NCBI RefSeq assembly: GCF_011045215.1
Contig: NZ_CP049201.1
DNA: 64,000 nt
Strand: one strand, 5' to 3'
Source: Escherichia coli
Lineage (GTDB): Bacteria; Pseudomonadota; Gammaproteobacteria; Enterobacterales; Enterobacteriaceae
Part shown: positions 21,914 through 44,634 of the stretch, piece by piece
Position numbering within the stretch: position 1 is the first letter of the stretch
Layout: each line of letters opens with the position of its first letter
The notes under the pieces: generated by a model
Database searches by the model: none
What the model was told of the DNA's origin: nothing
The model's input: only the letters and a program-made list of their open reading frames with translations
Translations under genes and position numbers: made by a program

Positions 21914-23508
21914 TGGCTGACATTCTGCTGCTCGATAATATCGACTCTTTTACGTACAACCTGGCAGATCAGTTGCGCAGCAATGGGCATAACGTGGTGA
22001 TTTACCGCAACCATATTCCGGCGCAAACCTTAATTGAACGCCTGGCGACGATGAGCAATCCGGTGCTGATGCTTTCTCCAGGACCCGGTGTGCCGAGCGA
22101 AGCTGGTTGTATGCCTGAACTGCTTACCCGCCTGCGCGGTAAGCTGCCTATTATTGGCATTTGCCTCGGTCATCAGGCAATTGTCGAAGCTTACGGGGGC
22201 TATGTCGGTCAGGCGGGCGAAATTCTCCACGGTAAAGCGTCGAGCATTGAACACGACGGTCAGGCGATGTTTGCCGGATTAACAAACCCATTGCCGGTGG
22301 CGCGTTATCACTCGCTGGTTGGCAGTAACATTCCGGCAGGTTTAACCATCAATGCCCATTTTAATGGCATGGTGATGGCAGTACGTCACGATGCGGATCG
22401 CGTTTGTGGATTCCAGTTCCATCCGGAATCCATTCTTACTACCCAGGGCGCTCGCCTGCTGGAACAAACGCTGGCCTGGGCGCAGCAGAAACTAGAGCCA
22501 ACCAACACGCTGCAACCGATTCTGGAAAAACTGTATCAGGCACAGACCCTTAGCCAACAAGAAAGCCACCAGCTGTTTTCAGCGGTGGTACGTGGCGAGC
22601 TGAAGCCGGAACAACTGGCGGCGGCGCTGGTGAGCATGAAAATTCGCGGCGAGCACCCGAACGAGATCGCCGGAGCAGCAACCGCGCTACTGGAAAACGC
22701 CGCGCCGTTCCCGCGCCCGGATTATCTGTTTGCCGATATCGTCGGCACCGGCGGTGACGGCAGCAACAGCATCAATATTTCTACCGCCAGTGCGTTTGTC
22801 GCCGCGGCCTGTGGGCTGAAAGTGGCGAAACACGGCAACCGTAGCGTCTCCAGTAAATCTGGTTCGTCCGATCTGCTGGCGGCGTTCGGTATTAATCTTG
22901 ATATGAACGCCGATAAATCGCGCCAGGCGCTGGATGAGTTAGGTGTTTGTTTCCTCTTTGCGCCGAAATATCACACCGGATTCCGCCACGCGATGCCGGT
23001 TCGCCAGCAACTGAAAACCCGCACCCTGTTCAATGTGCTGGGGCCATTGATTAACCCGGCGCATCCGCCGCTGGCGTTAATTGGTGTTTATAGTCCGGAA
23101 CTGGTGCTGCCGATTGCCGAAACCTTGCGCGTGCTGGGGTATCAACGCGCGGCGGTGGTGCACAGCGGCGGGATGGATGAAGTTTCATTACACGCGCCGA
23201 CAATCGTTGCCGAGCTGCACGATGGCGAAATTAAGAGCTATCAGCTCACCGCAGAAGACTTTGGCCTGACACCCTACCACCAGGAGCAACTGGCAGGCGG
23301 AACACCGGAAGAAAACCGTGACATTTTAACACGCTTGTTACAAGGTAAAGGCGACGCCGCCCATGAAGCAGCCGTCGCGGCGAACGTCGCCATGTTAATG
23401 CGCTTGCATGGCCATGAAGATCTGCAAGCCAATGCGCAAACCGTTCTTGAGGTACTGCGCAGTGGTTCCGCTTACGACAGAGTCACCGCACTGGCGGCAC
23501 GAGGGTAA
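21913..23508 (+). CDS. trpD: Anthranilate synthase component II / anthranilate phosphoribosyltransferase
   Basis: 531-aa ORF, glutamine amidotransferase N-domain plus PRT C-domain. Confidence 0.97.
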
Positions 23509-24870
23509 ATGATGCAAACCGTTTTAGCGAAAATCGTCGCAGACAAGGCGATTTGGGTAGAAGCCCGCAAACAGCAGCAACCGCTGGCCAGTTTTCAGAA
23601 TGAGGTTCAGCCTAGCTCGCGACATTTTTATGATGCGCTACAGGGTGCGCGCACGGCGTTTATTCTGGAGTGCAAGAAAGCGTCGCCGTCAAAAGGCGTG
23701 ATCCGTGATGATTTCGATCCAGCACGCATTGCCGCCATTTATAAACATTACGCTTCGGCAATTTCGGTGCTGACTGATGAGAAATATTTTCAGGGGAGCT
23801 TTGATTTCCTCCCCATCGTGAGCCAAATCGCCCCGCAGCCGATTTTATGTAAAGACTTCATTATCGACCCTTACCAGATCTATCTGGCGCGCTATTACCA
23901 GGCCGATGCCTGCTTATTAATGCTTTCAGTACTGGATGACGACCAATATCGCCAGCTTGCAGCCGTCGCCCACAGTCTGGAGATGGGTGTGCTGACCGAA
24001 GTCAGTAATGAAGAGGAACTGGAGCGCGCCATTGCATTGGGGGCAAAGGTCGTTGGCATCAACAACCGCGATCTGCGCGATTTGTCGATCGATCTCAACC
24101 GTACCCGCGAGCTTGCGCCGAAACTGGGGCACAACGTGACGGTAATCAGCGAATCTGGCATCAATACTTACGCTCAGGTGCGCGAGTTAAGCCACTTCGC
24201 TAACGGCTTTCTGATTGGTTCGGCGCTGATGGCCCATGACGATTTGCACGCCGCCGTGCGTCGGGTGTTGCTGGGCGAGAATAAAGTGTGTGGCCTGACG
24301 CGTGGGCAAGATGCTAAAGCTGCTTATGATGCGGGGGCGATTTACGGTGGGTTGATTTTGGTTGCGACATCACCGCGTTGCGTCAACGTTGAACAGGCGC
24401 AGGAAGTGATGGCTGCGGCACCGTTGCAGTATGTTGGCGTGTTCCGCAATCACGATATTGCCGATGTGGTGGACAAAGCTAAGGTGTTATCGCTGGCGGC
24501 AGTGCAACTGCATGGTAATGAAGATCAGCTGTATATCGATACGCTGCGTGAAGCTCTGCCAGCACACGTTGCCATCTGGAAAGCATTAAGCGTCGGTGAA
24601 ACCCTGCCCGCCCGCGAGCTTCAGCACGTTGATAAATATGTTTTAGACAACGGCCAGGGTGGAAGCGGGCAACGTTTCGACTGGTCACTATTAAATGGTC
24701 AATCGCTTGGCAACGTTCTGCTGGCGGGGGGCTTAGGCGCAGATAACTGCGTGGAAGCGGCAAAAACCGGCTGCGCCGGGCTTGATTTTAATTCTGCTGT
24801 AGAGTCGCAACCGGGCATCAAAGACGCACGTCTTTTGGCCTCGGTTTTCCAGACGCTGCGCGCATATTAA
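23509..24870 (+). CDS. trpC: Indole-3-glycerol phosphate synthase / phosphoribosylanthranilate isomerase
   Basis: 453-aa ORF beginning [16 protein letters not shown]. Confidence 0.97.
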
Positions 24871-24881
24871 GGAAAGGAACA

Positions 24882-26075
24882 ATGACAACATTACTTAATC
24901 CCTATTTTGGTGAGTTTGGCGGCATGTACGTGCCACAAATCCTGATGCCTGCCCTGCGCCAGCTGGAAGAAGCTTTTGTCAGCGCGCAAAAAGACCCTGA
25001 ATTTCAGGCCCAGTTTAACGACCTTTTGAAAAACTATGCCGGACGCCCAACCGCGCTGACCAAATGCCAGAACATTACGGCTGGCACGAACACCACGCTG
25101 TACCTGAAGCGTGAAGATTTGCTGCACGGCGGCGCACACAAAACCAACCAGGTGCTCGGTCAGGCTTTGCTGGCGAAGCGAATGGGTAAAACCGAAATCA
25201 TCGCCGAAACCGGGGCTGGTCAGCATGGCGTGGCCTCTGCCCTTGCCAGCGCCCTGCTCGGCCTGAAATGCCGCATTTATATGGGGGCCAAAGACGTCGA
25301 GCGCCAGTCACCCAACGTTTTTCGTATGCGCTTAATGGGTGCGGAAGTGATCCCGGTGCATAGCGGTTCCGCAACGCTGAAAGATGCCTGTAACGAGGCT
25401 CTGCGCGACTGGTCCGGCAGTTATGAAACCGCGCACTATATGCTGGGTACCGCAGCCGGCCCACATCCTTACCCGACTATTGTCCGTGAGTTCCAGCGGA
25501 TGATTGGCGAAGAAACCAAAGCGCAGATTCTGGAAAGAGAAGGTCGCCTGCCGGATGCCGTTATCGCCTGTGTTGGCGGCGGTTCGAATGCCATCGGTAT
25601 GTTTGCAGATTTCATCAACGAAACCAACGTCGGCCTGATTGGTGTGGAGCCTGGTGGTCACGGTATCGAAACTGGCGAGCACGGCGCACCGCTAAAACAT
25701 GGTCGCGTGGGCATTTATTTCGGTATGAAAGCGCCGATGATGCAAACCGAAGACGGGCAGATTGAAGAATCTTACTCCATCTCCGCCGGACTGGATTTCC
25801 CGTCTGTCGGCCCACAACACGCGTATCTTAACAGCACTGGACGCGCTGATTACGTGTCTATTACCGATGATGAAGCCCTTGAAGCCTTCAAAACGCTGTG
25901 CCTGCACGAAGGGATCATCCCGGCGCTGGAATCCTCCCACGCCCTGGCCCATGCACTGAAAATGATGCGCGAAAACCCGGAAAAAGAGCAGCTACTGGTG
26001 GTTAACCTTTCCGGTCGCGGCGATAAAGACATCTTCACCGTTCACGATATTTTGAAAGCACGAGGGGAAATCTGA
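24882..26075 (+). CDS. trpB: Tryptophan synthase beta chain
   Basis: 397-aa ORF, PLP-enzyme motifs. Confidence 0.97.
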
Positions 26076-26881
26076 TGGAACGCTACGAATCTCTGTTTGC
26101 CCAGTTGAAGGAGCGCAAAGAAGGCGCATTCGTTCCTTTCGTCACGCTCGGGGATCCGGGCATTGAGCAGTCATTGAAAATTATCGATACGCTAATTGAA
26201 GCCGGTGCTGACGCGCTGGAGTTAGGTATCCCCTTCTCCGACCCACTGGCGGATGGCCCGACCATTCAAAACGCCACTCTGCGCGCCTTTGCGGCAGGTG
26301 TGACTCCGGCACAATGTTTTGAAATGCTGGCACTGATTCGCCAGAAACACCCGACCATTCCCATTGGCCTGTTGATGTATGCCAATCTGGTGTTTAACAA
26401 AGGCATTGATGAGTTTTATGCCCAGTGCGAAAAAGTCGGCGTCGATTCGGTGCTGGTTGCCGATGTGCCTGTTGAAGAGTCCGCGCCCTTCCGCCAGGCC
26501 GCGTTGCGTCATAATGTCGCACCTATCTTCATCTGCCCGCCAAATGCCGATGACGACCTGCTGCGCCAGATAGCCTCTTACGGTCGTGGTTACACCTATT
26601 TGCTGTCACGAGCGGGCGTGACCGGCGCAGAAAACCGCGCCGCGTTACCCCTCAATCATCTGGTTGCGAAGCTGAAAGAGTACAACGCTGCACCTCCATT
26701 GCAGGGATTTGGTATTTCCGCCCCGGATCAGGTAAAAGCAGCGATTGATGCAGGAGCTGCGGGCGCGATTTCTGGTTCGGCCATTGTTAAAATCATCGAG
26801 CAACATATTAATGAGCCAGAGAAAATGCTGGCGGCACTGAAAGCTTTTGTACAACCGATGAAAGCAGCGACGCGCAGTTAA
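26075..26881 (+). CDS. trpA: Tryptophan synthase alpha chain
   Basis: 268-aa ORF beginning [28 protein letters not shown]; 1-nt overlap with trpB stop. Confidence 0.97.
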
Positions 26882-26888
26882 TCCCACA

Positions 26889-26915
26889 GCCGCCAGTTCC
26901 GCTGGCGGCATTTTA
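26889..26915 (+). terminator. trp operon terminator
   Basis: GCCGCCAG-TTCC-CTGGCGGC hairpin followed by TTTT immediately after trpA. Confidence 0.8.
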
Positions 26916-27261
26916 ACTTTCTTTAACGAAGCCGGAAAAATCCTAAATTCATTTTATATTTATCTTTTTACCGTTTCGCTTACCCCTGTCGAACGTCAAC
27001 TTACGTCATTTTTCCGCCCAACAGTAATATAATCAAACAAATTAATCCCGCAACATAACACCAGTAAAATCAATAATTTTCTCTAAGTCACTTATTCCTC
27101 AGGCAATTGTTAATATATCAAGAACGTTCCTCATAATATATTTTCCCACTTTCTTCTCGTTACGCTTAATTTGACTAATTCTCATTAGCGACTAATTTTA
27201 ATGAGTGTCGACACACAACACTCATATTAATGAAACAATGCAACGCAACGGGAGAAATAAC

Positions 27262-27441
27262 ATGGCCGAACATCGTGGTGGTTCAGGAAATTTCGCCGAA
27301 GACCGTGAGAAGGCATCCGACGCAGGCCGTAAAGGCGGTCAGCATAGCGGCGGTAATTTTAAAAATGATCCGCAACGCGCATCTGAAGCGGGTAAAAAAG
27401 GCGGTCAACAAAACGGTGGTAATAAATCAGGTAAATCCTGA
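27262..27441 (+). CDS. yciG: YciG, KGG-repeat stress protein
   Basis: ORF track 27205..27441; start taken at MAEHRGGSGNF (ATG 27262) with RBS GGAGAAATAAC; KGG repeats. Confidence 0.85.
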   Translation: MAEHRGGSGNFAEDREKASDAGRKGGQHSGGNFKNDPQRASEAGKKGGQQNGGNKSGKS

Positions 27442-27526
27442 TTCACCGTTAATTATTAATATCAGCTGATAAAGATAATTGCATCTGCGGGCCGTATGGC
27501 TCGCAGTGATTCCACTGGAGAAAAAT

Positions 27527-28027
27527 ATGAATATGAAGACCATTGAAGATGTATTTATTCACCTGCTTTCAGATACCTACAGCGCAGAAAAACAATTAAC
27601 CCGGGCACTGGCAAAACTCGCAAGAGCAACATCAAACGAAAAATTAAGTCAGGCTTTTCATGCGCACCTCGAGGAAACACATGGACAGATTGAACGTATT
27701 GATCAAGTTGTGGAATCAGAATCGAATCTGAAAATTAAGCGCATGAAATGTGTGGCAATGGAAGGTCTTATTGAAGAAGCTAATGAGGTCATCGAAAGTA
27801 CCGAGAAAAACGAAGTGCGTGATGCCGCACTGATTGCCGCAGCACAGAAAGTCGAGCACTATGAGATTGCCAGTTACGGGACATTAGCGACGCTGGCTGA
27901 ACAATTAGGTTACCGTAAAGCAGCGAAGCTTCTGAAAGAGACCCTGGAAGAAGAAAAGGCCACCGACATCAAACTGACTGATCTGGCCCTTAATAACGTA
28001 AATAAGAAAGCCGAAAATAAAGCCTGA
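27527..28027 (+). CDS. yciF: YciF, ferritin-like stress protein (DUF892)
   Basis: ORF track 27479..28027; recalled YciF begins MNMKTIEDVFIHLLSDTYSAEKQ, ATG at 27527. Confidence 0.9.
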   Translation: MNMKTIEDVFIHLLSDTYSAEKQLTRALAKLARATSNEKLSQAFHAHLEETHGQIERIDQVVESESNLKIKRMKCVAMEGLIEEANEVIESTEKNEVRDAALIAAAQKVEHYEIASYGTLATLAEQLGYRKAAKLLKETLEEEKATDIKLTDLALNNVNKKAENKA

Positions 28028-28072
28028 AATATGAACTTTAACTTTTAGTCATTTTATAAAGAGGACATTTTC

Positions 28073-28579
28073 ATGAATCGTATTGAACATTATCATGACT
28101 GGTTACGTGACGCCCATGCAATGGAAAAGCAAGCCGAATCTATGCTTGAATCCATGGCCAGCCGTATAGATAATTATCCTGAACTACGTGCTCGTATTGA
28201 ACAACATCTTAGTGAAACCAAAAACCAGATTGTTCAACTGGAAACTATTCTTGATCGTAATGACATTTCACGTTCAGTCATTAAAGATTCCATGAGTAAA
28301 ATGGCTGCGCTTGGGCAGTCAATCGGTGGTATATTCCCTTCTGATGAAATAGTCAAAGGCTCTATTAGCGGATATGTCTTCGAGCAATTTGAAATCGCCT
28401 GTTACACCTCTCTATTAGCAGCAGCAAAAAATGCCGGTGATACAGCCTCAATTCCGATCATCGAAGCGATTTTAAATGAGGAAAAGCAAATGGCCGACTG
28501 GCTGATTGAGCATATTCCGCAAACAACTGAGAAATTTTTAATTCGATCTGAAACTGATGGCGTAGAAGCGAAGAAATAA
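28073..28579 (+). CDS. yciE: YciE, ferritin-like stress protein (DUF892)
   Basis: 168-aa ORF MNRIEHYHDWLRDAHAMEKQ; paralogue of yciF. Confidence 0.9.
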   Translation: MNRIEHYHDWLRDAHAMEKQAESMLESMASRIDNYPELRARIEQHLSETKNQIVQLETILDRNDISRSVIKDSMSKMAALGQSIGGIFPSDEIVKGSISGYVFEQFEIACYTSLLAAAKNAGDTASIPIIEAILNEEKQMADWLIEHIPQTTEKFLIRSETDGVEAKK

Positions 28580-29061: not shown

Positions 29062-29224
29062 CATATCGTTTGCACAGTCACATTCGCGATTTATGGCGGG
29101 CTGTGTGGGGGAGCCGAAAGGCTCGCCGGTTTCCGTACCCGGTTACGCCAACCCTGCACAGTTCGCCACCAGTTCGATTGGCGTCGTCGGTGGCGATAAT
29201 TTCCAAATGTACGGAGTTATCGTT

Positions 29225-29788
29225 ATGACCACTCAGATTTCTGTCGAAACTCTTTCCCCGATTACACACAATCAAATTCCCGTTATCACTACCGAGTTGC
29301 TGGCGCAGCTTTATGGCACGGACTCAGATAACATCAAAAAGAATTATTCGCGCAACGCAGATCGCTTTTGTGAAGGTAAGCACTTTTACAAGGTGATTGG
29401 CGATGAACTAAAGAATTTGCGGGTGACTTTAAGTCACTCACAAAATCCCATCTCTCCCAAAACTCGCTCCCTCATCCTCTGGACAGAACGCGGCGCAGCC
29501 CGCCATGCCAAAATGCTCGAAACCGATCAGGCGTGGGAAGTGTTCGAAAAACTGGAAGACTGTTATTTCAGCCATAAACAACCACCAGCAACACAAAACT
29601 CCCCCACCCCAAATGATGGATGCGCATTACTGATCCACTTCGATAAACACGGGCAGGTCGAGTTCACGGAAAAAGTCCCCGCCGATGCGATGGTATGCAC
29701 TCTGGAACGGTTTAAATTTTATCTGGAGCAACATGGGTGGATCGTTGCCCGTAAAGAACAATTGGTAGAAAGGTTGATGCGGTTTTAA
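29225..29788 (+). CDS. ORF6N-domain (KilA-N-like) protein
   Basis: ORF track 29093..29788; start taken at MTTQISVETLSPITHNQIPVITTELLAQLYG (ATG 29225); motif typical of ORF6N/antirepressor-like family. Confidence 0.6.
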   Translation: MTTQISVETLSPITHNQIPVITTELLAQLYGTDSDNIKKNYSRNADRFCEGKHFYKVIGDELKNLRVTLSHSQNPISPKTRSLILWTERGAARHAKMLETDQAWEVFEKLEDCYFSHKQPPATQNSPTPNDGCALLIHFDKHGQVEFTEKVPADAMVCTLERFKFYLEQHGWIVARKEQLVERLMRF

Positions 29789-29794
29789 TGAATG

Positions 29795-29828
29795 CAAAAC
29801 CCCGGATGATCACCGGGGTTGATTTTAT
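29795..29828. terminator. Bidirectional terminator between ORF6N gene and tail fibre assembly gene
   Basis: AACCCCGG-ATGATCA-CCGGGGTT hairpin flanked by A/T runs. Confidence 0.5.
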
Positions 29829-30403
29829 CGAGGATGATTGCCGCTAATCGTCATCTCTCTGATTGAGAGTAAATCATCCAAGTTATTCAGCTCTTGCTTC
29901 ATCTCCCGCTGGCGGCGATAAATCTCGTCATTGCGATCGACCTGCGCCTGAACCATTGCAGTAAGCAGCTCATCCAGTTGTTGCATTGACAACTTTACCT
30001 GCTGATTTTCCGCATCGCGCCATACCATGGTTTTCCGTGCCGTGACTGATTTTGCTGATATCACCACCGGGTAAAGACGGGCCATCGAATCCGGTCCCCC
30101 GTTCCAGCTATGACCGTTCCATTCAAAAATGAATGGCTGCGCCTCCTGCTCTGTACGCCATGCTTCAATTTCCCGGCGTTTGGCTGCTTTTGCTGCTTCC
30201 AGCATCTCTGGCGTGACGGTGAACGGCGTTATTTCTCCCCACTTGCCGCTTTGCAGTTCCTGCCAGACTCGCTGCCCTGTCTCTGCTGTATCCGTGGCAG
30301 TTGCCGTATACGGAACCGGTTCATCCATGCCATCAAACAACACCCCGCAGTCAATCGCGCCATTTTCAAGATAACGCGCATTTTCGATGCGTTTTATTTC
30401 CAT
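29825..30403 (-). CDS. Putative tail fibre assembly chaperone (Tfa-like)
   Basis: ORF track 29825..30436, start at MEIKRIENARYLENG (ATG 30403); immediately downstream of a fibre gene. Confidence 0.55.
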   Translation of the reverse strand: MEIKRIENARYLENGAIDCGVLFDGMDEPVPYTATATDTAETGQRVWQELQSGKWGEITPFTVTPEMLEAAKAAKRREIEAWRTEQEAQPFIFEWNGHSWNGGPDSMARLYPVVISAKSVTARKTMVWRDAENQQVKLSMQQLDELLTAMVQAQVDRNDEIYRRQREMKQELNNLDDLLSIREMTISGNHPR

Positions 30404-30410
30404 AAAACAC

Positions 30411-31835
30411 CTACGCAATACGTATGAACAAACCAATCATGACACTGGCTGACCCGGCAGACCCGAGTTCATCGCCTGACAGTGCACGATATGACCCCGG
30501 CATACCACCACCAGAACCCCGCACATATACGGAAACGCTGCCGTTATATCCAACCCCGCTACCGGTCGTGCCGTAACACATAAATTCAACCGCACTCAGG
30601 CGTGACCCCGGATAACTGTAACCGCGCTTTATCCGGCGGTCGGTGTCTGCGTCTCCCTTACCGTTATAAGCCGCCAGTACAAGACTGCCTGCACCGTACC
30701 AGCCGTCCGTGGTACCGGGAGCAATACCGGACAGAAGAGAGATAATGTCCTGTGAGGTAATCTTCAGATTTTCCCAGCCAGTCAGATAACCATTACCTGT
30801 TGTCCAGTAGCGGCTGTAATAAACATCGCCATTGATACCGTAGAAAATAATGGCCTTTGGTGTATATCGCGGTTCCGGTGGATTATTGCGTGCCTCAACC
30901 CACCGGATGCTGACCACCCCGTTAAACAACACACCTCCGGATATGATTTTACTGCCACCCTCAACAAAATATTCACCCGGCGTCGCATTCCTTACCCATG
31001 CCAGAAAATCATCCTCTGTGTTAAAACGGATGCGTTCTGCGGGCAGAAAAATATGCCCAAAACCAAATGCGCCAGGTGTCGCCAGACGGCCTTCAGTCCG
31101 GTCGCGAATGTCGCTCTGTGGCGTCATTGTGGCTGCGCTTTTCAGTCCAAGATTATCACGGGATTCCTGCTGAGCCTCTTCACCTTCATCAGCCAGCTCT
31201 GATAAACGATTCGCCGTTTTCAGTGTCGCAGATAACGCGGTGTCAATATCCTCCCTGACATGCTCTGCATCAGATGCAGCCTGTTTAGCAGCTTCAGCGT
31301 CCTTTTTTACCTCCTCGGCGGCATTCTCAACCTGTGAGACCAGATTTTCGGCCTGTTGTTTACCCTCCGCAACCGCGTCGGCGTTCTGCTGAACACCTTC
31401 CGCCAGTTTTTTTACCTCTTCTTTTTCCCGAGCGGCAGCGTCTGCATGTTGCCCTGCCTGTCGTTCGCTTTCTGTTGCAGTTTCCGCGCTCTGCTGCGCC
31501 TGCGCCACCAGTTCTTCGAACCGCTTAACAACATCCGGCTTCAGGTCGCCTTCATCGAGGGCAGTCAGAAAGTCGTTCAGCGTGCCAGGCTTTGAGTCGT
31601 CGTAAACCGAAATATCACCGACACAGTATTCCCTTTCAATACACGACCGAAGATAAACGTCATATTTTCCGGTCTGAGCTTCAAAAGCATATTCTCCTGC
31701 CGGACCTGTCACCACTGTCGCCACCGTTCTCATGACCACTGCGGATGTATTCTGTCTGGCTTTCAGAATAATATGGTATCCGGACATGGGGAGTCCCGCG
31801 CCATCCGTCAGCACACCCGAAATTAATACAGACAT
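30411..31835 (-). CDS. Side tail fibre (Stf-like): prophage tail-fibre N-terminal domain, Ala/Glu-rich coiled region, distinct C-terminal domain
   Basis: N-terminus ISGVLTDGAGLPMSGYHIILKARQNTS...SVYDDSKPGTLNDFL resembles recalled StfR/StfE N-domain. Confidence 0.7.
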   Translation of the reverse strand: MSVLISGVLTDGAGLPMSGYHIILKARQNTSAVVMRTVATVVTGPAGEYAFEAQTGKYDVYLRSCIEREYCVGDISVYDDSKPGTLNDFLTALDEGDLKPDVVKRFEELVAQAQQSAETATESERQAGQHADAAAREKEEVKKLAEGVQQNADAVAEGKQQAENLVSQVENAAEEVKKDAEAAKQAASDAEHVREDIDTALSATLKTANRLSELADEGEEAQQESRDNLGLKSAATMTPQSDIRDRTEGRLATPGAFGFGHIFLPAERIRFNTEDDFLAWVRNATPGEYFVEGGSKIISGGVLFNGVVSIRWVEARNNPPEPRYTPKAIIFYGINGDVYYSRYWTTGNGYLTGWENLKITSQDIISLLSGIAPGTTDGWYGAGSLVLAAYNGKGDADTDRRIKRGYSYPGSRLSAVEFMCYGTTGSGVGYNGSVSVYVRGSGGGMPGSYRALSGDELGSAGSASVMIGLFIRIA

Positions 31836-31859
31836 TTTTATTTCCTGATTCAGAAAACA

Positions 31860-32936
31860 TTAACCAAAATAATTGACGCCTTTTTTCTTGCCACTGGCTT
31901 TCCCCTTTGCAGAAATATCCGTGGCCAGCGACAGATTCAGCGAAAATCCCTGCACCGGTGACAACGAAAATTCCACTGACTCTGCCTGCCAGTTATGGTC
32001 CTCCCGTACCCCGAAGCCCCGTGTGATAAAGCGCACTTCCGCCCCCGCTTTCAGCAATACCGGTCGGCAGGGCAGCGTTATCGTCATCTGACGCCCCGCT
32101 TTCTGCACCCGCTTTACCTTCGACTGTGCACAATGTTCTGCCGTGCCCTGGTCTGGCTGGGTGAAGGGATGACGCTTGTCTGTGGACTCCACATCCACTT
32201 TAAGTTCACGCGTGCGACCATCAGACGGAGTAAAGTACCTGACACCAACCTTTCCCCCTTTTCCGCCTCCGGATGCCCCCTGCCGATCGCCCTCCCGGTA
32301 ATCCCAGTCTGACACCATATCCGGTGTGATAGTCATCACAGGGGCATCCCTGCCTCCGGTACTCTGCGACGCACCATACTCCAGAAATAACCAGTAACCG
32401 TTCGTCGGTTTACTGGTGGCACCGTACATCCCTGCAAGCCGGGAAAGCAGGGACGCATCCGACTCAGATGACTGCATCACCCACGGAATACGAATTTCCT
32501 CCAGTACCGGAGATACCCGCGCCACCAGATTATTTTCAGTGGCGATCGTTTTTACCAGGTCACCCAGCGTGACATCGCTGAAGGCGCGGGTTTTCAGTGC
32601 AGTCACATCTGCACCATGCCTGGACGCATTCATGGGGGCTGCGGTGGCATAAATGGTGATCCGGCGGGGAGGGCCACCGCTTGCCACCTGACAGACAGTA
32701 AAGCTACCCTTATTCACCAGACGTCCGTTAAACCCCAGCCCCAGCGTTAATACTGCGCCTTTCGGTGGCAATGCCAGCGTTTCACTGAACAGCGTTATCA
32801 TTAACTCATCAGCCCGCTTTGTGGCAGCACCATTATCGGTATAACGCAGTTCAGCCAGTCCGCGTTTTATTGCTTTCGTGATATCCTCGCCTTCCACCGT
32901 CAGACTGAAATCCGGCTGATATTCATTCAGTCCCAT
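31860..32936 (-). CDS. P2 gpD-like tail protein (late control D)
   Basis: 358-aa ORF downstream of U/X in a P2-like order. Confidence 0.75.
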   Translation of the reverse strand: MGLNEYQPDFSLTVEGEDITKAIKRGLAELRYTDNGAATKRADELMITLFSETLALPPKGAVLTLGLGFNGRLVNKGSFTVCQVASGGPPRRITIYATAAPMNASRHGADVTALKTRAFSDVTLGDLVKTIATENNLVARVSPVLEEIRIPWVMQSSESDASLLSRLAGMYGATSKPTNGYWLFLEYGASQSTGGRDAPVMTITPDMVSDWDYREGDRQGASGGGKGGKVGVRYFTPSDGRTRELKVDVESTDKRHPFTQPDQGTAEHCAQSKVKRVQKAGRQMTITLPCRPVLLKAGAEVRFITRGFGVREDHNWQAESVEFSLSPVQGFSLNLSLATDISAKGKASGKKKGVNYFG

Positions 32937-33145: not shown

Positions 33146-33614
33146 AGTATTTCAGCTCCAGTGTGAACGTTTTGTTTTTCGGCGCACCGCCGGGAAGAAA
33201 GGACGTGGTGTTATCTGAATAGGCGGTTACAACAAAATACCCCATCACATCCCCCGTCCCGGAAACCAGCAGATGCGGCGCAGGATTTTTATCCACCATC
33301 TGAACCAGCGTATCAAGGGCATCCATCCCCACACCGTCACGAAATCCCGCATGAACCATCCCTTCAAGGCTTATCGTTCTGGCCCCCTTACCGGTATACT
33401 GCAGCAGATCATTTTTTCCGATTAACTGCTGCTCATCCCATCGCCATTCCATGGTGCGCTTCATGGCGTTATACGCCGCTGAATCAATACTGAACTCAAA
33501 CTCACCAAACGACAGCATGACCCGCGAGGCCACATCGGTTAATGAACCAATCCTGTCCCATGCCCTGCGCTCAATCATGTTTGCGCCAAAGCCAACAAAA
33601 TCCACCATCATCAC
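33120..33614 (-). CDS. P2 gpU-like tail protein
   Basis: 164-aa ORF beginning MMMV, between tape measure and X. Confidence 0.65.
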   Translation of the reverse strand: MMMVDFVGFGANMIERRAWDRIGSLTDVASRVMLSFGEFEFSIDSAAYNAMKRTMEWRWDEQQLIGKNDLLQYTGKGARTISLEGMVHAGFRDGVGMDALDTLVQMVDKNPAPHLLVSGTGDVMGYFVVTAYSDNTTSFLPGGAPKNKTFTLELKYYGEKLADH

Positions 33615-35266
33615 CCCCAGAATGCATAACTGTCGGTCATGCTGGCCCGCTGGCCAAAATCAATATCACCCAGATTTTTCGTCACCCTGTCTGCCAGCTG
33701 TCCGGCATCCTCGCCGGGCTTCTGGGTGAGGTTAAATTCAGCCCGTATCTGATACGTGGGTTTTACTTCCACCTGGCTGATACTGCCCGGAACGTAGTGA
33801 AGCGCAGAAAGAGGATCCGTTTTTTCCTGCCCCTGTTTTGTAGCGGGTGGGGTGTCATACTTCGCGAGGACATCAAGCGCTTTCTTTTCCCATCCGTCAA
33901 AGTCCGGATCGTCTTCTGGCCCCAGAAAAGGCTCGAGGGACGCCTCAAATTTTTTATCGTCATCACTCAGGAAACCGCGTGTGTCTGTATACGCCTTCAC
34001 AACCTGCTTCGTCAGATCGGGATTTTTTTTAAGCTGATCATCAAACCATTTATCCTGCCCGTTCCTCTTCGCCACTGCCCTTGCCAGCTCTGGCGAGCCT
34101 GTTTTTGCCAGATATTCCAGCACCTCACGCCGGTCACTCCGTGGATCTTCAGCCAGCCCCCACTCGATGGCCTTTTCAGTGAGCCCGGCAATGACTTTTC
34201 CAAAATTCCACGCCCAGGCCGTCACCTTGATCAACATCGGCAGCGCGTCCTCTCTGATAAATGTATTGATTTTTTCCAGCCCGCCGTTTTTAAACCAGTC
34301 CGCCAGGTCGTCCGTGACCTGCTGAATATTCGGTGCCAGCTCTTTCCCCAGCTGTCCACAGATTTCATCAATGGACGAACCCAGAACACCGGTGAGGTTT
34401 GAGACGGCGATATGTCCCCGGACGGCACCATCCGCCCCTTCCCTGGTCACCAGGTTATAGCGCTTCTGCTCCTCAATAAGCTCCCGGTAAGTTTTTCCTG
34501 ACAGACGCATCCAGGTCAGGATCTTATTACCCTCACCACCAAACAATGCATCCGCCATCCCGGCAGCCTTTTGTTCATCCTTCACCTGCAGCAATCGGTC
34601 AAAAAGAAATTCAACCTGCTCCTGGTTGTTTTTTCCCGCCATCGCCCCGGCTTTCAGCCCCAGCGCCCCGAAGACCTGCTGTATGGCACCTTTATCCGAT
34701 GCGCCATTATCATCATCAAAAACCTTGTTGCGGTACTCCTCAAACAGATCCCCGAAGTTTTCCCCGTTCAGCCCCATCTGCTTACCCAGCGAATCCCACG
34801 CTGCATACGTCTCATAATCCACACCGTAACTCCGGGCTATCCCTGCCCGCTCTGCAGTTTCACTGTTCCGGCTAAATGCTGCACCGGCAGCGCCTGCCAG
34901 TGTCAGTCCTGCCCCGACCGAAAGCCCTAACCCCGCTTTCAGAGCGGTCTTTCCACGCCCTTTCCAGCGTTCCAGACGTTCCGCACGTGCCAGCTTACGG
35001 TTAAATTTATCCTGCTCTCCGGTGGCATCATGAATTTTTTTGCCCAGCTTTTCATACTGCTTTCGCAGTTCAGTAATATCCTGCCCTGCCAGTACGCCAG
35101 CCTGAATTTTTCGTTTCAGTACATCCTGCTGGCGAGTCAGGCGAGCCACTTCCTGCGTTGCCCCTGATAATCCGTGCTTCAGTCCATCAACCGATTTTTT
35201 CCACGACGGATCTATCGTGCCGCCGATCCTGATATTCGCTTTCAGGTTATCGCCCACCGTTGCCAT
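33611..35266 (-). CDS. Tail tape measure protein (551 aa)
   Basis: Long Ala/Gly/Lys-rich ORF following the E/E' chaperone pair; start MATVGDNLKANIRIGG. Confidence 0.7.
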   Translation of the reverse strand: MATVGDNLKANIRIGGTIDPSWKKSVDGLKHGLSGATQEVARLTRQQDVLKRKIQAGVLAGQDITELRKQYEKLGKKIHDATGEQDKFNRKLARAERLERWKGRGKTALKAGLGLSVGAGLTLAGAAGAAFSRNSETAERAGIARSYGVDYETYAAWDSLGKQMGLNGENFGDLFEEYRNKVFDDDNGASDKGAIQQVFGALGLKAGAMAGKNNQEQVEFLFDRLLQVKDEQKAAGMADALFGGEGNKILTWMRLSGKTYRELIEEQKRYNLVTREGADGAVRGHIAVSNLTGVLGSSIDEICGQLGKELAPNIQQVTDDLADWFKNGGLEKINTFIREDALPMLIKVTAWAWNFGKVIAGLTEKAIEWGLAEDPRSDRREVLEYLAKTGSPELARAVAKRNGQDKWFDDQLKKNPDLTKQVVKAYTDTRGFLSDDDKKFEASLEPFLGPEDDPDFDGWEKKALDVLAKYDTPPATKQGQEKTDPLSALHYVPGSISQVEVKPTYQIRAEFNLTQKPGEDAGQLADRVTKNLGDIDFGQRASMTDSYAFWG

Positions 35267-35746: not shown

Positions 35747-36265
35747 TCACACCCGGATAATTTTTTTCAGATCCGACAGCACATTCACACCGTTAATGCG
35801 CCGTACAAACTGCTCCGGAATAATGCAGATGGTCTCCAGTCCATCGACAGCCTGGCGGTAATAACTCAGTGACATTTCCACCGACACCGCTGCTTCTGCC
35901 TGCGAGGTGGACGGACGCGCATCCGGCGTGATACTGGTGATCATCCCCTGAAGGGTTTCCACCAGACCGCTTGTTGCACCGCCCACCTGATACGCCTGAC
36001 GGACAACAATTTCTGGCGAATAAATCCCTGCCTGCAATCCCAGCAGAGTCAGTATGGCCACGTCGTATCCGTAAATTTTAAACGAGCAGGTCAGCGCCTC
36101 CATACCGTCATCCACTGACACCGGCGCATCCATCGCACCGGTTTTGATGTCCACCTTCGTGATATTGATGGCCGGAGGCGTGTACTCATGTGCCCCCTGA
36201 AGGCGAATACCACCCGGCAGAAAGAGCGCCCATGCCCGTAGCAGTTTTTTTTCGCACGACATCAT
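35747..36265 (-). CDS. Tail tube protein (P2 FII-like)
   Basis: 172-aa ORF directly after sheath, ATGA overlap. Confidence 0.75.
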   Translation of the reverse strand: MMSCEKKLLRAWALFLPGGIRLQGAHEYTPPAINITKVDIKTGAMDAPVSVDDGMEALTCSFKIYGYDVAILTLLGLQAGIYSPEIVVRQAYQVGGATSGLVETLQGMITSITPDARPSTSQAEAAVSVEMSLSYYRQAVDGLETICIIPEQFVRRINGVNVLSDLKKIIRV

Positions 36266-37737
36266 ACTGTCAGTTCCTCCTGTGCCAGTTTATTGTTGAT
36301 CATTGTACGCAGCGTCAGGCGTTCCAGTGGTGACTTCGGCCCGAAGTCATAGTCGATATACAACTGCCCGGCAGCCAGGGTTTCTGCTGTATTCAGTTCG
36401 TCGTTCAGCCATGCGCTACCACCGTGGATCGCGCCCAGATTTTTAAGCTGGCGCATGTAGGCATTAATACTGCCGAGAATATCGTCCGCAACATCCCGAT
36501 CAATCGGACGGTCAACATAAGGCAACATGGATTCCTGAACACTGTCTTCAATCACATCAGCCGTACGGCGCACGGACTCAAAGCGCAACTGGCTATGAGA
36601 TGTGCACAGGCGGTTACCCCAGTGTTTAAAACCGTCATGACGAATAATGGTGGAGATGTTTTCCATGTTCAGCAGATTTGCCGTGCAGTTCTGCTCCCCG
36701 AGAATAAATGTATCCACCTGCTCAAGACCGGTGATATTCATCACGTCCTGATTTGATTTGGACCACCACCATCCTTTTTCATAATCAATACGGGCACGCA
36801 GTCCGGCAGCGCGTGCCGAATACGGGCGAAACACTGTTTGTCCGCTGTCATCCGTCACCGACACGCGCGGACGAAGCAGTTCAACACGCCCACCAAATAA
36901 CGTCCGGCGCTGAACCACATCCTGCGGCGTTACCATTGAGGGGGAGTCAATATAGGCAACAGCCCGCAGTTTCGCGGCATACGTTTCCAGCGCCTTTGCC
37001 ACACCATCATCCTCGCTGTAGCCAGTGGCGACAAGAATACGCGGCTGGTAGCCTGTTACGCCTTTGCTCTTCGTCAGAGCTTCCATGGCCTTAATCACTG
37101 CGGCACGCTGTTCTGCCTCCTTCGCTTTCGGTTTGCTTTCCGCACGTACCACAATCACCAGCGCACCGGTCTGGTCAAAAATATCACGCAGGGCAGGATA
37201 CAGCGTTCCGGAAGCCCCCAGCTTTCCGGCCTGCGTGAGTGCCCCCGCCACCACCACCGGCGTATTAACCGGAAATGCCTCATCCTCACCGCCGGACAAC
37301 GTCAGGGTAAAGGGAGATACCACTCCTTCCCCGACAGAATCTGCATTCAGCATGCTGGTATCGGCCATCACCGGTGAATCCTCCAGCGCATTCACAACCT
37401 CCTTCACACGTGACGCAGTGGCATTCGTCTCACCATGTTCATCTGTGCCCAGTGTGATCGTCAGGGTGTTTCCCTCCAGAGCCGCGGTTGTCTCTGCGTT
37501 TTGCTGCGTGCTTCCGTTGGCCACAACTGAAATCTCATTGCCGGACCGCCCGGCTTTTTTCGCTGTAAAATCCAGCGCGGAACTCAACAACCATGATCCG
37601 GCAGTACCGGAAGCACACACACCGCCGGAGGCGTCCGGCGCTGTCCCCACGAGGCCAATCACTGCCGTGGAGACGGTCTGCACGGCCACCGTGCCTGTCG
37701 TCAGTTCAATGGTTTCCACACCATGTAGTCCGGACAT
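36262..37737 (-). CDS. Tail sheath protein (P2 FI-like) with enlarged central region
   Basis: ORF track 36262..37824; start taken at MSGLHGVETIELTTGTVAVQTVSTAVIGLVGTAPDA (ATG 37737, RBS GGGAGAAA); C-terminus LYIDYDF..PLERLTLR resembles recalled P2 sheath. Confidence 0.8.
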   Translation of the reverse strand: MSGLHGVETIELTTGTVAVQTVSTAVIGLVGTAPDASGGVCASGTAGSWLLSSALDFTAKKAGRSGNEISVVANGSTQQNAETTAALEGNTLTITLGTDEHGETNATASRVKEVVNALEDSPVMADTSMLNADSVGEGVVSPFTLTLSGGEDEAFPVNTPVVVAGALTQAGKLGASGTLYPALRDIFDQTGALVIVVRAESKPKAKEAEQRAAVIKAMEALTKSKGVTGYQPRILVATGYSEDDGVAKALETYAAKLRAVAYIDSPSMVTPQDVVQRRTLFGGRVELLRPRVSVTDDSGQTVFRPYSARAAGLRARIDYEKGWWWSKSNQDVMNITGLEQVDTFILGEQNCTANLLNMENISTIIRHDGFKHWGNRLCTSHSQLRFESVRRTADVIEDSVQESMLPYVDRPIDRDVADDILGSINAYMRQLKNLGAIHGGSAWLNDELNTAETLAAGQLYIDYDFGPKSPLERLTLRTMINNKLAQEELTV

Positions 37738-37792
37738 ACATTTCTCCCATAAAAAAACCGCCCCTGAGGCGGTCAGTTGATTTACTTCTTTT

Positions 37793-38338
37793 TCAGGTGT
37801 TTTGTGGAGGTACTGGCCACTCAATGGCGTTATATGAGGTTTTATCAGTGATGGTGCTGAAATCCATCGCCTGCAGCGATTTCGCGTAAATGCGGTACGC
37901 TTTCAGCTTTTCCCTGTCCTCGTCGCTGATTAATCCCAGCAACAGGTCTTTTTCCCATTCGCTGGTCATTATACTGACCTGTTTTAACAGGGCATCACGC
38001 TCGTCTTCCGCTTTAAGTTTGTAGTCGAAAACAAATTCATCATTGCGGTAAAACCAGTAGCCTGATGCTTCAATGCGACGATTAGCGGTAATATCCGGCA
38101 ACTCAATCACGCTTTTATTTTCCGGGCAGATTGAGGTGATGTCTTTTCCGACCCAGACCACTTCGCCAGTTTCAACATAAATAACTTTCAGGGTGTCTGG
38201 TAGAAATTTTTCCTGGGCTTCGTGCCATTCCTGTCCATCATCTGAGAACAGCCACAATAAAAATTTATGCTGTCGCGCCAGCTGGTATTGCTCAATTGTT
38301 TTAGGGTTTTGTACCGTAATATTTTTTAAGTGCATCAT
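37793..38338 (-). CDS. Tail fibre assembly chaperone (P2 gpG / Tfa family)
   Basis: 181-aa ORF directly after fibre gene; C-terminus ...NAIEWPVPPQNT typical of Tfa. Confidence 0.75.
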   Translation of the reverse strand: MMHLKNITVQNPKTIEQYQLARQHKFLLWLFSDDGQEWHEAQEKFLPDTLKVIYVETGEVVWVGKDITSICPENKSVIELPDITANRRIEASGYWFYRNDEFVFDYKLKAEDERDALLKQVSIMTSEWEKDLLLGLISDEDREKLKAYRIYAKSLQAMDFSTITDKTSYNAIEWPVPPQNT

Positions 38339-38340
38339 GA

Positions 38341-39714
38341 TTACAAACTCGCTACATTTCTCCAGACGCCATTAATCAGAACCTGCACCGGGCGTGCATT
38401 GGCCCAGTCCACACTTTCACCGCCATCAACACCACTCAGTAAATGACCTGATGGCGCATTTCCCCCGCGTCCAATACCAATGGCGCTTCCCAGACGTACA
38501 TCCTGCACGCCGCCTGTTTTGGTCTGATAGCGGGCATCAAAGTTTCCGTAGTTTGATGGAGTTATCTGCCCATTTACAGCGAATGTGACGCTACCGTCTG
38601 TATTTCTCTGACTGTAGAAATGCCAGCCGGAATCATCACCAAGCTCTGCAACTACAGGTCTGGATGGATTACCCCATAAATTAAACCCTACGTTCTTCGT
38701 GGAGCTGTTGGAGCTGGATAGCGTGAATTTTTTACTATCCCCGGCCTGAACGTTTTTAAAAGCAATAGCAACTCCATTCTGAAAGCGAAATACGCGCTGA
38801 TTATTAGCATAAACATCCAGAATGCCGTCGCCGTTTTGTTTTATACCTGTATCGTTATCACCGAGAGTAATAGAATTACCACCCAATGCGTTATTCGTAC
38901 CAAGCGCCAGCCCACCATCAATTTTTGCACCGTGGCTGACTGATATAGCGCCTGTTCTCAGATTTATAGCAAATGGCCTTAATGGGCCGATATCACCGTT
39001 TTCGCCCCGTCCTTCAGACGTCGGGATAAAATGAAGATATTCTTCCGAACGACGAAAAATCAGGCCAAAAGCATCGTCGAAAATTCGCAGCGCATTCACC
39101 GTGCCAATTTTCAGCTCCCCGGTCATGGTGTCACCACCGCGCTGAACGGCATTTTTCGCTTTATCCACCGTAGGTTTTAATCCGAGGTTATCAACCGCTT
39201 CATCTTTATCTTCCACATCGGCAAGATTCTCGCCGATGCGCAGATAGCGTTTATCTCCGGCCTCCTGCGTGATAATCGCCCTGTGAGGATCCACCTCCAG
39301 CGTCACACTCTGTGTATGTGTAAGCGCAAGAACCAGTGTCAGTATCACCTCCTTGATAACGGAATCCGTCTGTGCCGGTAAATACGTATCCGGATAACGA
39401 CCATACGCAATCAGCGTGCCACGGCGACTCACCATCCCCAGCTCGCGCAGGGTCTTTCCCGGGTATGACTGACAGTCAATGACAATATCCCCGCTGATAA
39501 AACCTTCGTCCACCACGCCGCCTGAAAAGGGCTCCCGACCAAACTCACCACACAACATGACCATCGCCGCCATCTCATCCGGCGTTGAGGGCAGTGTTTT
39601 CCCGCCCCCGTCACCAATCATCACCTGACTGATGGTCACCACCTCACCGGCATGATATGCAGCTTCAATTTCGGCTGCCCCGGCTGTTGTCAAAACTAGT
39701 CCATGCATACCCAC
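38341..39714 (-). CDS. Tail fibre protein (P2 gpH-like)
   Basis: 457-aa ORF; C-terminal half (NNALGGNSITLGDNDTGIKQNGDGILDVYANNQRVFRFQNGVAIAFKN...) closely resembles recalled P2 H. Confidence 0.8.
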   Translation of the reverse strand: MGMHGLVLTTAGAAEIEAAYHAGEVVTISQVMIGDGGGKTLPSTPDEMAAMVMLCGEFGREPFSGGVVDEGFISGDIVIDCQSYPGKTLRELGMVSRRGTLIAYGRYPDTYLPAQTDSVIKEVILTLVLALTHTQSVTLEVDPHRAIITQEAGDKRYLRIGENLADVEDKDEAVDNLGLKPTVDKAKNAVQRGGDTMTGELKIGTVNALRIFDDAFGLIFRRSEEYLHFIPTSEGRGENGDIGPLRPFAINLRTGAISVSHGAKIDGGLALGTNNALGGNSITLGDNDTGIKQNGDGILDVYANNQRVFRFQNGVAIAFKNVQAGDSKKFTLSSSNSSTKNVGFNLWGNPSRPVVAELGDDSGWHFYSQRNTDGSVTFAVNGQITPSNYGNFDARYQTKTGGVQDVRLGSAIGIGRGGNAPSGHLLSGVDGGESVDWANARPVQVLINGVWRNVASL

Positions 39715-41206: not shown

Positions 41207-41537
41207 TTCTGATTTCCTCCAGACGAATTGTTTCCTGTGTTTCGTTATTCACGCCCAAAAGCGTCAACATGACATTTCCCTCACCGCCGAAGCTCACCTC
41301 CACACGGCGGATCGTCAGTCTCGGTTCCCAGCGTTCAAGAGCGGTAACCGTCTCACGGACAATCCTCACCCGTGTGAAATCATCCTGCGGGTTATCAAGC
41401 AGACTGAACAACCTGCTGCCGTATTCCCTGAGAAGTACCCGGCTGCCGACTGGTGTTGACAAAATATCGGTGACGGACTGACGCAGATGTTCGTTACCGT
41501 GCAGATATCTGCCGGTGGCGGAATCAATACCAATCAT
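41181..41537 (-). CDS. Baseplate protein W (P2 gpW / gp25-like)
   Basis: ORF track 41181..41627; start taken at MIGIDSATGRYL (ATG 41537); SVTDILSTPVGSRV resembles recalled P2 W. Confidence 0.75.
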   Translation of the reverse strand: MIGIDSATGRYLHGNEHLRQSVTDILSTPVGSRVLLREYGSRLFSLLDNPQDDFTRVRIVRETVTALERWEPRLTIRRVEVSFGGEGNVMLTLLGVNNETQETIRLEEIRIDNVSGHY

Positions 41538-41571
41538 GAAATTTTTCCGAAAAAAAACGCCGGTGCGGCGT

Positions 41572-44620: not shown

Positions 44621-44634
44621 AAATCACCACAAAA

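Follow-up and report, generated by a model that had tools for sequence, protein, structure and literature searches.

A second tail fiber gene and its DUF4376 partner as a probable portable host-recognition cassette closing the tail operon in an Escherichia coli prophage

What may a second fiber and helper pair contribute to a phage tail that already possesses one? The window analyzed here, a stretch of 64,000 nucleotides from Escherichia coli, contains a temperate phage with lambda-like head genes and a contractile tail in P2 order, comprising sheath, tube, and P2-type baseplate (proteins V, W, J, and I). Relatives indicate that the prophage resides at ompW, and no tRNA gene was found at the prophage end. 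Upstream in the tail gene row, a tail or neck gene is interrupted by a satellite-like island of 11 kb (42347 to 53489), and the prophage may form no tails unless this island excises. The head-tail joining and tail-completion proteins belong to 54598 to 55005, 53895 to 54677, and the split gene, which would comprise 183 aa when restored. An earlier reading, made from the sequence only, had recognized a P2 H/G-type fiber and chaperone set at positions 37793 to 39714, which was confirmed by PF12571 in H and PF02413 in G (Table 1). It had also described a second, Stf-type fiber with a “Tfa-like chaperone” at the end of the tail module and had proposed dual receptor specificity or a recently swapped host-range cassette. 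The two genes of this second pair are probably a working, portable host-recognition cassette that the tail operon acquired at its end.

Table 1. Features of the second fiber locus and of the primary fiber genes, in window coordinates
Feature	Position	Strand	Residues	Basis and remarks
GC-rich hairpin AACCCCGG-7 nt-CCGGGGTT	29798..29820	.		Terminator scan and sequence
DUF4376 protein, presumed fiber-tip chaperone or cap	29825..30403	-	192 aa	PF14301; phrog_1141
Second fiber gene	30411..31835	-	474 aa	ORF; PF08400; phrog_2636 “tail fiber protein,” E 2e-161
C-terminal tip, presumably receptor-binding	30414..31139	-	aa 233-474 (~240 aa)	Two beta-rich subdomains
Joint motif RDNLGLK, putative shaft/tip recombination seam	31140..31160	-	aa 226-232	
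Ala/Glu-rich shaft, presumed trimeric coiled coil	31161..31550	-	aa 96-225	Composition
N-terminal anchor (“collar”) domain, lambda-Stf type	31437..31835	-	aa 1-133	PF08400, E 8.5e-55
AGGAA ribosome-binding site	31842..31846	-		Read from sequence; 6 nt upstream of fiber ATG, 13 nt past gpD stop
gpD-like tail protein, immediate upstream neighbor	31860..32936	-		phrog_52; relatives annotate “phage late control protein” or “VgrG/Pvc8 family”
Primary fiber chaperone G	37793..38338	-	181 aa	PF02413 Caudo_TAP, E 6.9e-22
Primary fiber H	38341..39714	-	457 aa	PF12571, E 5.7e-16; P2-H-type N-terminus

Both open reading frames of the second pair are present on the minus strand, and annotations of both genes already exist in public databases, with exact protein matches in NCBI (WP_164475787.1/QIF13940.1 for the fiber and WP_164475786.1 for its partner). 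The N-terminal prophage tail fiber domain that had been suggested for the fiber was found as PF08400. This anchor matched residues 1 to 93 of lambda Stf in PDB 9e7m with an E value of 2.9e-17 and is nearer to this protein than to the collar spike gp40 of Vibrio phage XM1 (PDB 7kjk), which matched the N-terminal region with an E value of 1.4e-7. Lambdoid Stf proteins align with residues 1 to 110 of the fiber only, at 47% identity over 110 aa. The following region, described before as rich in alanine and glutamate, indeed contains 20.8% Ala, 16.9% Glu, and one Pro between residues 96 and 225, and the coiled portion of XM1 gp40 aligns to it. PF12571, the P2 gpH-type baseplate-docking domain, is present in H but was absent from the second fiber in the Pfam search. 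NCBIfam gave no match for the second fiber, the DUF4376 protein, H, G, gpD, or the antirepressor.

Shaft and tip meet at the RDNLGLK motif. This joint is kept across tips that are fused to different anchors, and the homology to locus L004 and to phage phiP27 breaks at window position 31131, which is at this joint. Its “DNLGLK” part is also the sole stretch that the second fiber and H have in common; BLASTP revealed no significant similarity between both proteins, and the best match (E value of 0.18) was confined to the joint. The claim that the tip is unrelated to the C-terminus of H holds within this phage, but beyond it the tip is not distinct, because a near-identical version (97% aa identity) is mounted on the P2-H-type (PF12571) fibers of other E. 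coli prophages. The C-terminal 250 residues, which had been termed Gly/Tyr-rich, are rich in glycine (15.6%) but only mildly so in tyrosine (about 6% by our own count from the sequence). Structure prediction, which the sequence-only reading had recommended, yielded a confident tip model with a pLDDT of 85.6. Its best structural neighbors are phage fiber or receptor-binding-protein tips, those of phi812, phage K gp144, the R2 pyocin fiber, Mu S, and Pa193, in line with its presumed role in receptor binding. The tip match extended to the protein's C-terminal end in 119 of the 119 full-coverage homologues.

Concerning the partner of the fiber, the designation “Tfa-like chaperone” had to be given up. 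PF14301 (aa 70 to 175, E 2.5e-16) was the sole Pfam match of the 192-aa protein; PF02413 (Tfa/Caudo_TAP), which G of the same phage possesses, was not found by Pfam, and the protein exhibits no similarity to G. The E values of these domain assignments lie far outside what chance would give. With PF08400 and PF14301 as domains, a tip unrelated to that of H, and a helper dissimilar from G, the pair is nevertheless a second and independent set, as had been proposed. The DUF4376 protein has 1,761 homologous clusters, with PF14301 in every homologue listed. In its AlphaFold2 (AF2) model (pLDDT 84.7), strands at residues 3 to 11, 17 to 23, and 30 to 34 are followed by helices at 65 to 88, 104 to 119, and 140 to 173, with hairpins at 92 to 101 and 125 to 139. 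This predicted architecture of three N-terminal strands, a helical body, and hairpins fits gp27 of Alteromonas phage V22 and gp9 of phage A5 as these are verbally described (PMC10579305). Proteins with DUF4376 are required for, or bind to, the fibers of V22, A5, and Campylobacter CJIE1 (PMC10579305, PMC7882524). When the family profile was compared by sequence with solved structures, no match was obtained, so that the published link between DUF4376 and TfaMu was not reproduced here. A longer reading frame from a TTG start at 30436 (29825 to 30436) was rejected; the ATG at 30403 is the more likely start, since MEIK, MQIK, or MKIR opens every homologue.

The start codon of the DUF4376 gene is located 7 nt past the TAG stop of the fiber gene, and the same direct succession of both genes occurs in the loci L001 to L006 and in Escherichia phage Av-05. 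Downstream, the hairpin separates the DUF4376 gene from the antirepressor gene that converges on it, with a T-run that is good on the plus strand and weak on the minus strand; it is likely a two-way terminator that closes the tail operon. Ribosome-binding site, 7-nt coupling, and this hairpin after both genes agree with the earlier assignment of the pair to the end of the tail module. An origin of the pair as part of a neighboring lambdoid remnant was rejected because only 24 nt separate gpD from the start of the fiber gene, a junction that is kept in relatives.

The order of gpD, Stf-type fiber, DUF4376 protein, and antirepressor recurs in E. coli prophages at ompW. Their fibers comprise 490, 757, or 854 aa and have the anchor in common but not the tip. 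In comparison to these same-site relatives, homology breaks inside the fiber gene, either around residue 161 or at the joint around residue 235, and resumes in the chaperone gene. Tip and chaperone together are 92% identical at the nucleotide level to cassettes in unrelated prophage contexts, combined with an Stf-type anchor in L005, an E. coli prophage, and with a P2-H-type anchor in L006. Judged from these alignments, tip plus chaperone evidently form a mobile, swappable cassette. In four different contexts, the cassette of H-tip and G travels together with that of the second tip and DUF4376 protein: the window, phiP27, L005, and L006. Of the proposed “recently swapped host-range cassette,” the exchange of the tip is therefore evident, but a recent origin of the two-fiber set is not, since the layout is conserved at ompW and also exists as H/G plus Stf-type fiber/DUF4376 in phiP27 and in another E. 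coli prophage. The fiber/helper pair is a common cassette that is annotated in hundreds of genomes, real but ordinary.

These data can be combined into a model for the working of the pair. The 474-aa protein would be a trimeric fiber composed of four modules. Its lambda-Stf-type anchor would dock the fiber to the virion, the coiled-coil shaft would link the anchor to the joint, the joint would serve as the seam for exchange of tips by recombination, and the beta-rich tip would recognize a receptor on the cell surface. The DUF4376 protein, translated in step with the fiber, would trimerize on the tip, aid its folding, and possibly stay there as a removable cap. A virion would thus carry two kinds of fibers, H on the baseplate by way of its P2-type N-terminus, and the Stf-type accessory fiber, by which the phage may adsorb quickly and reversibly to a second receptor in the manner of the lambda side fibers. 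The use of two receptors by the two fiber sets is plausible.

Stf/Tfa of lambda (Ur-lambda) indeed agrees with the second pair in its homologous PF08400 anchor and a helper gene directly downstream, and the shaft next to the anchor, presumed here to be a coiled coil, may correspond as well. So may the accessory function in addition to a primary receptor binder, presumed here for the second fiber; the lambda side fibers accelerate adsorption through OmpC but are dispensable for plaque formation (PMC12617516). In contrast, the OmpC-binding, T4-gp37-like tip of lambda belongs to another family without similarity to the tip found here, its helper is Tfa (PF02413) instead of a DUF4376 protein, and its tail is a non-contractile, naked tube instead of a sheathed one. 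The P2 H/G and Mu S/U pairs differ in that the second fiber lacks PF12571 and its partner lacks PF02413, domains that the phage's own H and G possess.

Direct homologues of both proteins are L56/L57 of the Stx2e phage phiP27, which are annotated as being of unknown function. This fiber is 51% identical over its full length and the chaperone 69%; both are likewise the last tail genes, adjoin the att site, and stand behind a primary fiber/Tfa pair, L54/L55, to which the C-terminal part of H (57% identity to L54) and G (95% to L55) are also related. However, the phiP27 tip is a different variant of the same family, the order of the tail genes is different, and beyond the two fibers and two chaperones, no protein similarity between both tails was detectable. 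In gp76/gp77 of Escherichia phage Av-05 (Vequintavirinae), a tip from this family, 31% identical over aa 196 to 474, is followed by a DUF4376 homologue (41% identity, E 3e-54), albeit behind a different N-terminal anchor and in a virulent 121-kb myophage. A fiber followed by a DUF4376 protein is also present as gp26/gp27 in Alteromonas phage V22, gp8/gp9 in A5, and as the H-fiber and its downstream gene in CJIE1, but there the tips and anchors are unrelated, and the likeness of the chaperones is one of published description and model. The fiber/DUF4376 module is common to unrelated phage morphotypes.

Evaluation of the docking site needs to consider that the anchor of lambda Stf encircles the uncovered tail tube where gpV and gpM join (PMC12617516), a surface that is covered here because this tail has a sheath and a baseplate. 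As a tentative refinement of the model, the Stf-type domain may instead bind to the exposed connector or tail-terminator ring below the head, resulting in a neck (collar) fiber that acts like whiskers or collar spikes in first contact or sensing. XM1 gp40, with its related N-terminal domain and coiled region, belongs to a contractile-tailed Vibrio myophage, in which six gp40 trimers attach by the N-terminal domain to gp4 and gp5 of the neck (PMC10457771). The lambda domain wraps a tube-fold ring (PMC12617516), and a sheathed tail exposes such a ring mainly at the neck. The position of the gene after gpD at the operon end, apart from the baseplate and H/G genes, would also agree with this. However, gp40 is an 839-aa protein with an unrelated distal part, its neck position has been shown (PMC10457771), and the anchor of the fiber here is nearer to that of lambda Stf. 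In sequence, none of the neck proteins of this phage resembles a solved chain of XM1; the search for homology to gp4 and gp5 gave only a lambda gpFII-like match, for the head-tail joining protein. Moreover, phiP27 shares only the fiber and chaperone proteins, so that co-occurrence cannot indicate a docking partner, and L006 mounts the same tip on an anchor of the P2-H type, which docks to the baseplate, showing that this tip functions distally. It is possible, though not probable, that the Stf-type anchor is a general plug-in adaptor by which a single tip/chaperone cassette can be fitted to quite different virions, on the bare tube of siphophages and, as in XM1, at the neck and not the baseplate of contractile-tailed phages, and that the E. 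coli myophages of this family carry neck fibers.

Alternatively, the fiber may dock on the baseplate as an alternative or co-primary receptor-binding fiber with a role like that of H, which would mean a true second host range and not accessory adsorption. Many myophages possess two fiber sets at the baseplate, and the presence of the same tip on P2-H-type anchors as well as the common travel of both cassettes point in this direction. Such a docking is nevertheless rather doubtful. The fiber sockets of P2-type baseplates are already filled by H, and we know of no solved structure with a PF08400 domain on a baseplate; the two known sites are the lambda junction of tube and distal tail protein and the XM1 neck (PMC12617516, PMC10457771).

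More than a folding helper, the DUF4376 protein might be a permanent distal component of the tip that adds to or masks receptor binding, similar to the gp38 adhesins of T2 and T6 or to TfaMu. The PHROGs label of phrog_1141 is “tail fiber protein,” and the N-terminal 60 residues of the protein vary together with the type of tip. TfaMu stays on the Mu fiber, and the Alteromonas DUF4376 chaperones, which have been proposed to be transient caps, co-purify with the fibers (PMC10579305). This role is unlikely, since the DUF4376 proteins are 74 to 95% identical among the homologues listed while the tips diverge to 30 to 50%, which fits a general assembly factor better. Finally, that the pair is the silent leftover of a defective prophage, neither made nor used, might be suspected from the 11-kb island upstream and from the lack of a promoter-like site directly upstream of the fiber gene, bar one weak internal match, but is very improbable: both reading frames are intact, with ribosome-binding site and coupling; the dN/dS of anchor, tip, and chaperone compared to relatives is 0.10 to 0.21, so that both genes are under purifying selection and not decaying; the 368 members of the 90%-identity cluster are nearly all full length; the arrangement is kept in relatives without the island; and the split gene would be whole again if the island excised.

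A working, portable host-recognition cassette remains the preferred explanation, and the locus displays cleanly how parts for host range are shuffled in nature, although its importance is modest. One tip/chaperone unit is found behind two types of anchors, in temperate and virulent phages, with the seam visible at RDNLGLK, which is useful for engineering the specificity of phages or tailocins. The biological question raised, that of the docking of a lambda-type side fiber anchor on a sheathed tail, is no surprise to specialists. If the anchor should be a general adaptor, this prophage family and the phiP27-like phages would represent a widespread kind of E. coli myophage whose neck fibers bind receptors and thus provide a second organ of adsorption, located at the tail end that faces away from the baseplate.

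A second fibre with its own partner protein is encoded at 29825-31835, as the sequence-only reading had reported, and the exact proteins are present in NCBI (the 474-aa fibre, here fibre 2, as QIF13940.1/WP_164475787.1 and its 192-aa partner as QIF13939.1/WP_164475786.1). They are encoded on a contig of 5.41 Mb, and the window is part of the E. coli chromosome. PF08400 spans aa 1-133 of fibre 2 (E 8.5e-55), aa 96-225 are Ala/Glu-rich (20.8% Ala, 16.9% Glu), and the C-terminal 250 aa are Gly-rich (15.6%), with about 6% Tyr as counted from the sequence. The primary pair had been labeled "P2 H/G-type," rightly, because fibre H carries PF12571 and chaperone G carries PF02413. That fibre 2 does not resemble H was also borne out: there was no significant similarity, and the sole local match (E 0.18), "EAQQESRDNLGLKSAA" in fibre 2 versus "EDKDEAVDNLGLKPTV" in H, is the joint motif (RDNLGLK, aa 226-232). 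The partner had been called "Tfa-like," which is not correct by family and at most a functional guess, since DUF4376/PF14301 is its sole family match (E 2.5e-16) and comparison with G revealed no relation. The earlier interpretation was right in part, for the second pair and for a tip unlike that of H, and has to be revised for the partner, which is a DUF4376 and not a Tfa protein. The pair is a common, already annotated cassette type, a PF08400 fibre plus a DUF4376 protein.

An AGGAA ribosome-binding site is located 13 nt past the gpD stop codon, and the ATG of fibre 2 follows 6 nt after it. With gpD preceding and a GC-rich hairpin directly following the DUF4376 gene, the pair ends the row of tail genes. 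The hairpin is shared with a convergent antirepressor gene, the start of which is more likely near 29225 than at 29093; in relatives, the gene at this position is of ORF6N type or of Rha type. Whether the fibre gene might be a non-expressed remnant had been raised beforehand. Both ORFs are intact and coupled, and dN/dS (Nei-Gojobori) came to 0.13-0.16 in the anchor when three same-site relatives were compared, to 0.11-0.19 in the tip, and to 0.16-0.21 in the DUF4376 chaperone when the comparison was with the two closest cassettes. The 90%-identity cluster of fibre 2 has 368 members, nearly all of 474 aa. As judged from these sequence data, all of this argues against decay.

The head genes of the prophage are lambda-like (Nu1, A, portal, protease/scaffold, E-like capsid, FI, and an FII-like joining protein), and its contractile tail is encoded in the order known from P2. 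In same-site relatives, an incomplete ompW remains between the phage end and yciE, which indicates that the phage integrates in ompW. The tail sheath ORF comprises 520 aa when read from a TTG start overlapping the end of G, and that of a relative 491 aa (1476 bp); the true start is probably further downstream. In E. coli OkiPb01676, which carries a prophage of the same family at the same site, a subtilase-type AB5 toxin locus (L010 7326-9253; an S8 peptidase and two B subunits) follows three tRNA genes upstream of the lysis genes. The counterpart of this region in the window's prophage lies beyond 64000.

Coordinates of the prophage tail genes, the fibre 2 operon and the satellite-like island in the window
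Feature	Position	Strand	Remark
trpEDCBA-yciG-yciF-yciE	20351-28579		then prophage
ORF6N/KilA-N-type antirepressor	29093-29788	+	converges on fibre operon at prophage end
GC-rich hairpin	29798-29820		directly past DUF4376 gene
DUF4376 partner	29825-30403	-	192 aa; ATG 7 nt past fibre 2 TAG
Fibre 2	30411-31835	-	474 aa; TAG stop
D (gpD)	31860-32936	-	tail gene
U, X		-	tail genes, listed between tape measure and D
Tape measure	33611-35266	-	tail gene
E		-	tail gene, listed between tube and tape measure
Tube	35747-36265	-	tail gene
Sheath	36262-37824	-	tail gene
G	37793-38338	-	tail gene, primary chaperone
H	38341-39714	-	tail gene, primary fibre
I	39718-40299	-	tail gene
J	40292-41206	-	tail gene
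W	41181-41627	-	tail gene
V	41572-42354	-	tail gene
Displaced 3' part of split gene	42179-42346		just upstream of baseplate gene V
Satellite-like island	42347-53489	minus-strand genes	11.14 kb; interrupts tail and neck gene row
Island small terminase	43311-43895
Island D-like decoration protein	44635-44964
Island lambda-E-like capsid protein	44975-46030
Island RepA-type helicase/primase	47367-48782
Island integrase	52087-53418
Truncated 5' part of split gene	53434-53898		ORF

An 11-bp direct repeat, TCTCTTTTG(G/A)AC, flanks the island, the junctions of which are at about 42347-42357 and 53490-53500. The island splits the reading frame of a tail or neck gene of the phage (phrog_1072; 183 aa), of which the relative NZ_AP042480.1 has an intact copy. 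Regulators, an SSB, and a scaffold-like protein are further carried. With portal, large terminase, and tail genes absent between 42347 and 53489, the island looks like a phage satellite. The same phage gene holds this island in E. coli SA53-3, TUM9812, and CFIAFB20180511, and the island core is present elsewhere in many other genomes. The split gene bears on whether the island must first excise before the prophage can build tails, and a satellite integrating in a structural gene of its likely helper phage may merit a separate study.

Two known systems bear on where fibre 2 may be attached to the virion. Ur-lambda has a collar of twelve Stf N-domains at the gpV/gpM junction of its naked tube, bearing four projecting trimeric fibres; with these, adsorption via OmpC is faster, and they are not essential (PMC12617516). 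This docking site is not exposed on a sheathed tail, so that attachment to the neck would be a serious possibility by analogy to the Vibrio myophage XM1, in which six gp40 trimers are bound to the neck proteins gp4 and gp5 (PMC10457771). The N-terminal region of gp40 matches that of fibre 2 (E 1.4e-7); no sequence match to XM1 chains was found for the neck proteins of the window's prophage. The proteins shared with phage phiP27, all of them fibres or chaperones, point to no docking partner either.

A full-library HMMER search (1.84 billion representatives) yielded 103 tip clusters (50% identity) with E <= 1e-3, and the match extended to the protein end in all 119 of the 119 full-coverage homologues. 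In some long fibres the first tip half is present in two copies, which indicates two subdomains, approximately aa 245-356 and aa 357-474. Segments of conserved framework (aa 245-264, 385-394, 405-414, 445-454, and 465-474) alternate with variable ones (aa 265-274, 315-324, 355-374, 415-444, and 455-464), the latter being candidate specificity loops. At the ompW locus, fibres range from 474 to 854 aa across relatives. The long fibres of two same-site relatives (L002 5231-7795 and L003 4428-6701) hold a segment resembling collagen or lambda Stf, "APLxSPAxTGTPTxPT," and an extra copy of the first subdomain, so tip subdomains duplicate as well as swap.

Beside the fibres of E. coli prophages, DUF4376 proteins abound (1761 clusters). 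Fibres of Alteromonas phage V22 require their DUF4376 protein, gp27, to be active, and it co-purifies with these fibres; that of A5 binds the fibre but is dispensable. The architecture described by the authors consists of a helical body with a "tentacle" formed by a beta-hairpin, and of three beta-strands pairing with the fibre head; they proposed a role as a transient cap (PMC10579305). H-fibre function in Campylobacter CJIE1 likewise depends on a downstream DUF4376 gene (PMC7882524).

The order gpD, Stf-type fibre, DUF4376 protein, and antirepressor is the same in E. coli prophages at ompW, with fibres of 490, 757, and 854 aa. Their DNA is about 84% identical to the window through the tail genes and into the 5' portion of the fibre gene. 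There the homology ends, either at window position 31352 (aa ~161) or precisely at the joint (position 31131, aa ~235), and it picks up again in the chaperone gene (74-84%). The window's tip and chaperone are 92-93% identical in nucleotides to cassettes in two other contexts. The first is prophage L005, whose baseplate module differs; a 517-aa fibre and a PF02413 chaperone come first there, and an Stf-type fibre of 439 aa with a DUF4376 protein lies after them where the prophage ends. In the second, L006, the window's tip (93-97% in amino acids) is joined to a P2-H-type PF12571 anchor with the DUF4376 gene downstream, just behind an H-tip/G cassette, 95.5% identical in nucleotides to that of the window (L006 1-831 compared). 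Phage phiP27 has the same two-set arrangement, L54/L55 and then L56/L57, and shares only four proteins with the prophage: the C-terminal part of H (57%, L54) and G (95%, L55), both compared between window 37793-39714 and L009 38636-40185, as well as the DUF4376 protein (69%) and fibre 2 (51%). Beyond fibres and chaperones, no virion protein common to both was detectable. In the virulent phage Av-05, a gene for a tip of this family (31% identity) precedes one for a DUF4376 homologue (41%, E 3e-54). Recurrence in the same-site, L005, L006, phiP27, and Av-05 contexts thus marks tip and DUF4376 protein, at the level of sequence comparison, as a conserved unit, mobile between anchors and between phage types. 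Two-fibre architectures combining H-tip/G with tip/DUF4376 cassettes recur as well; both co-occur in four different prophage contexts, which suggests joint selection of the two specificities.
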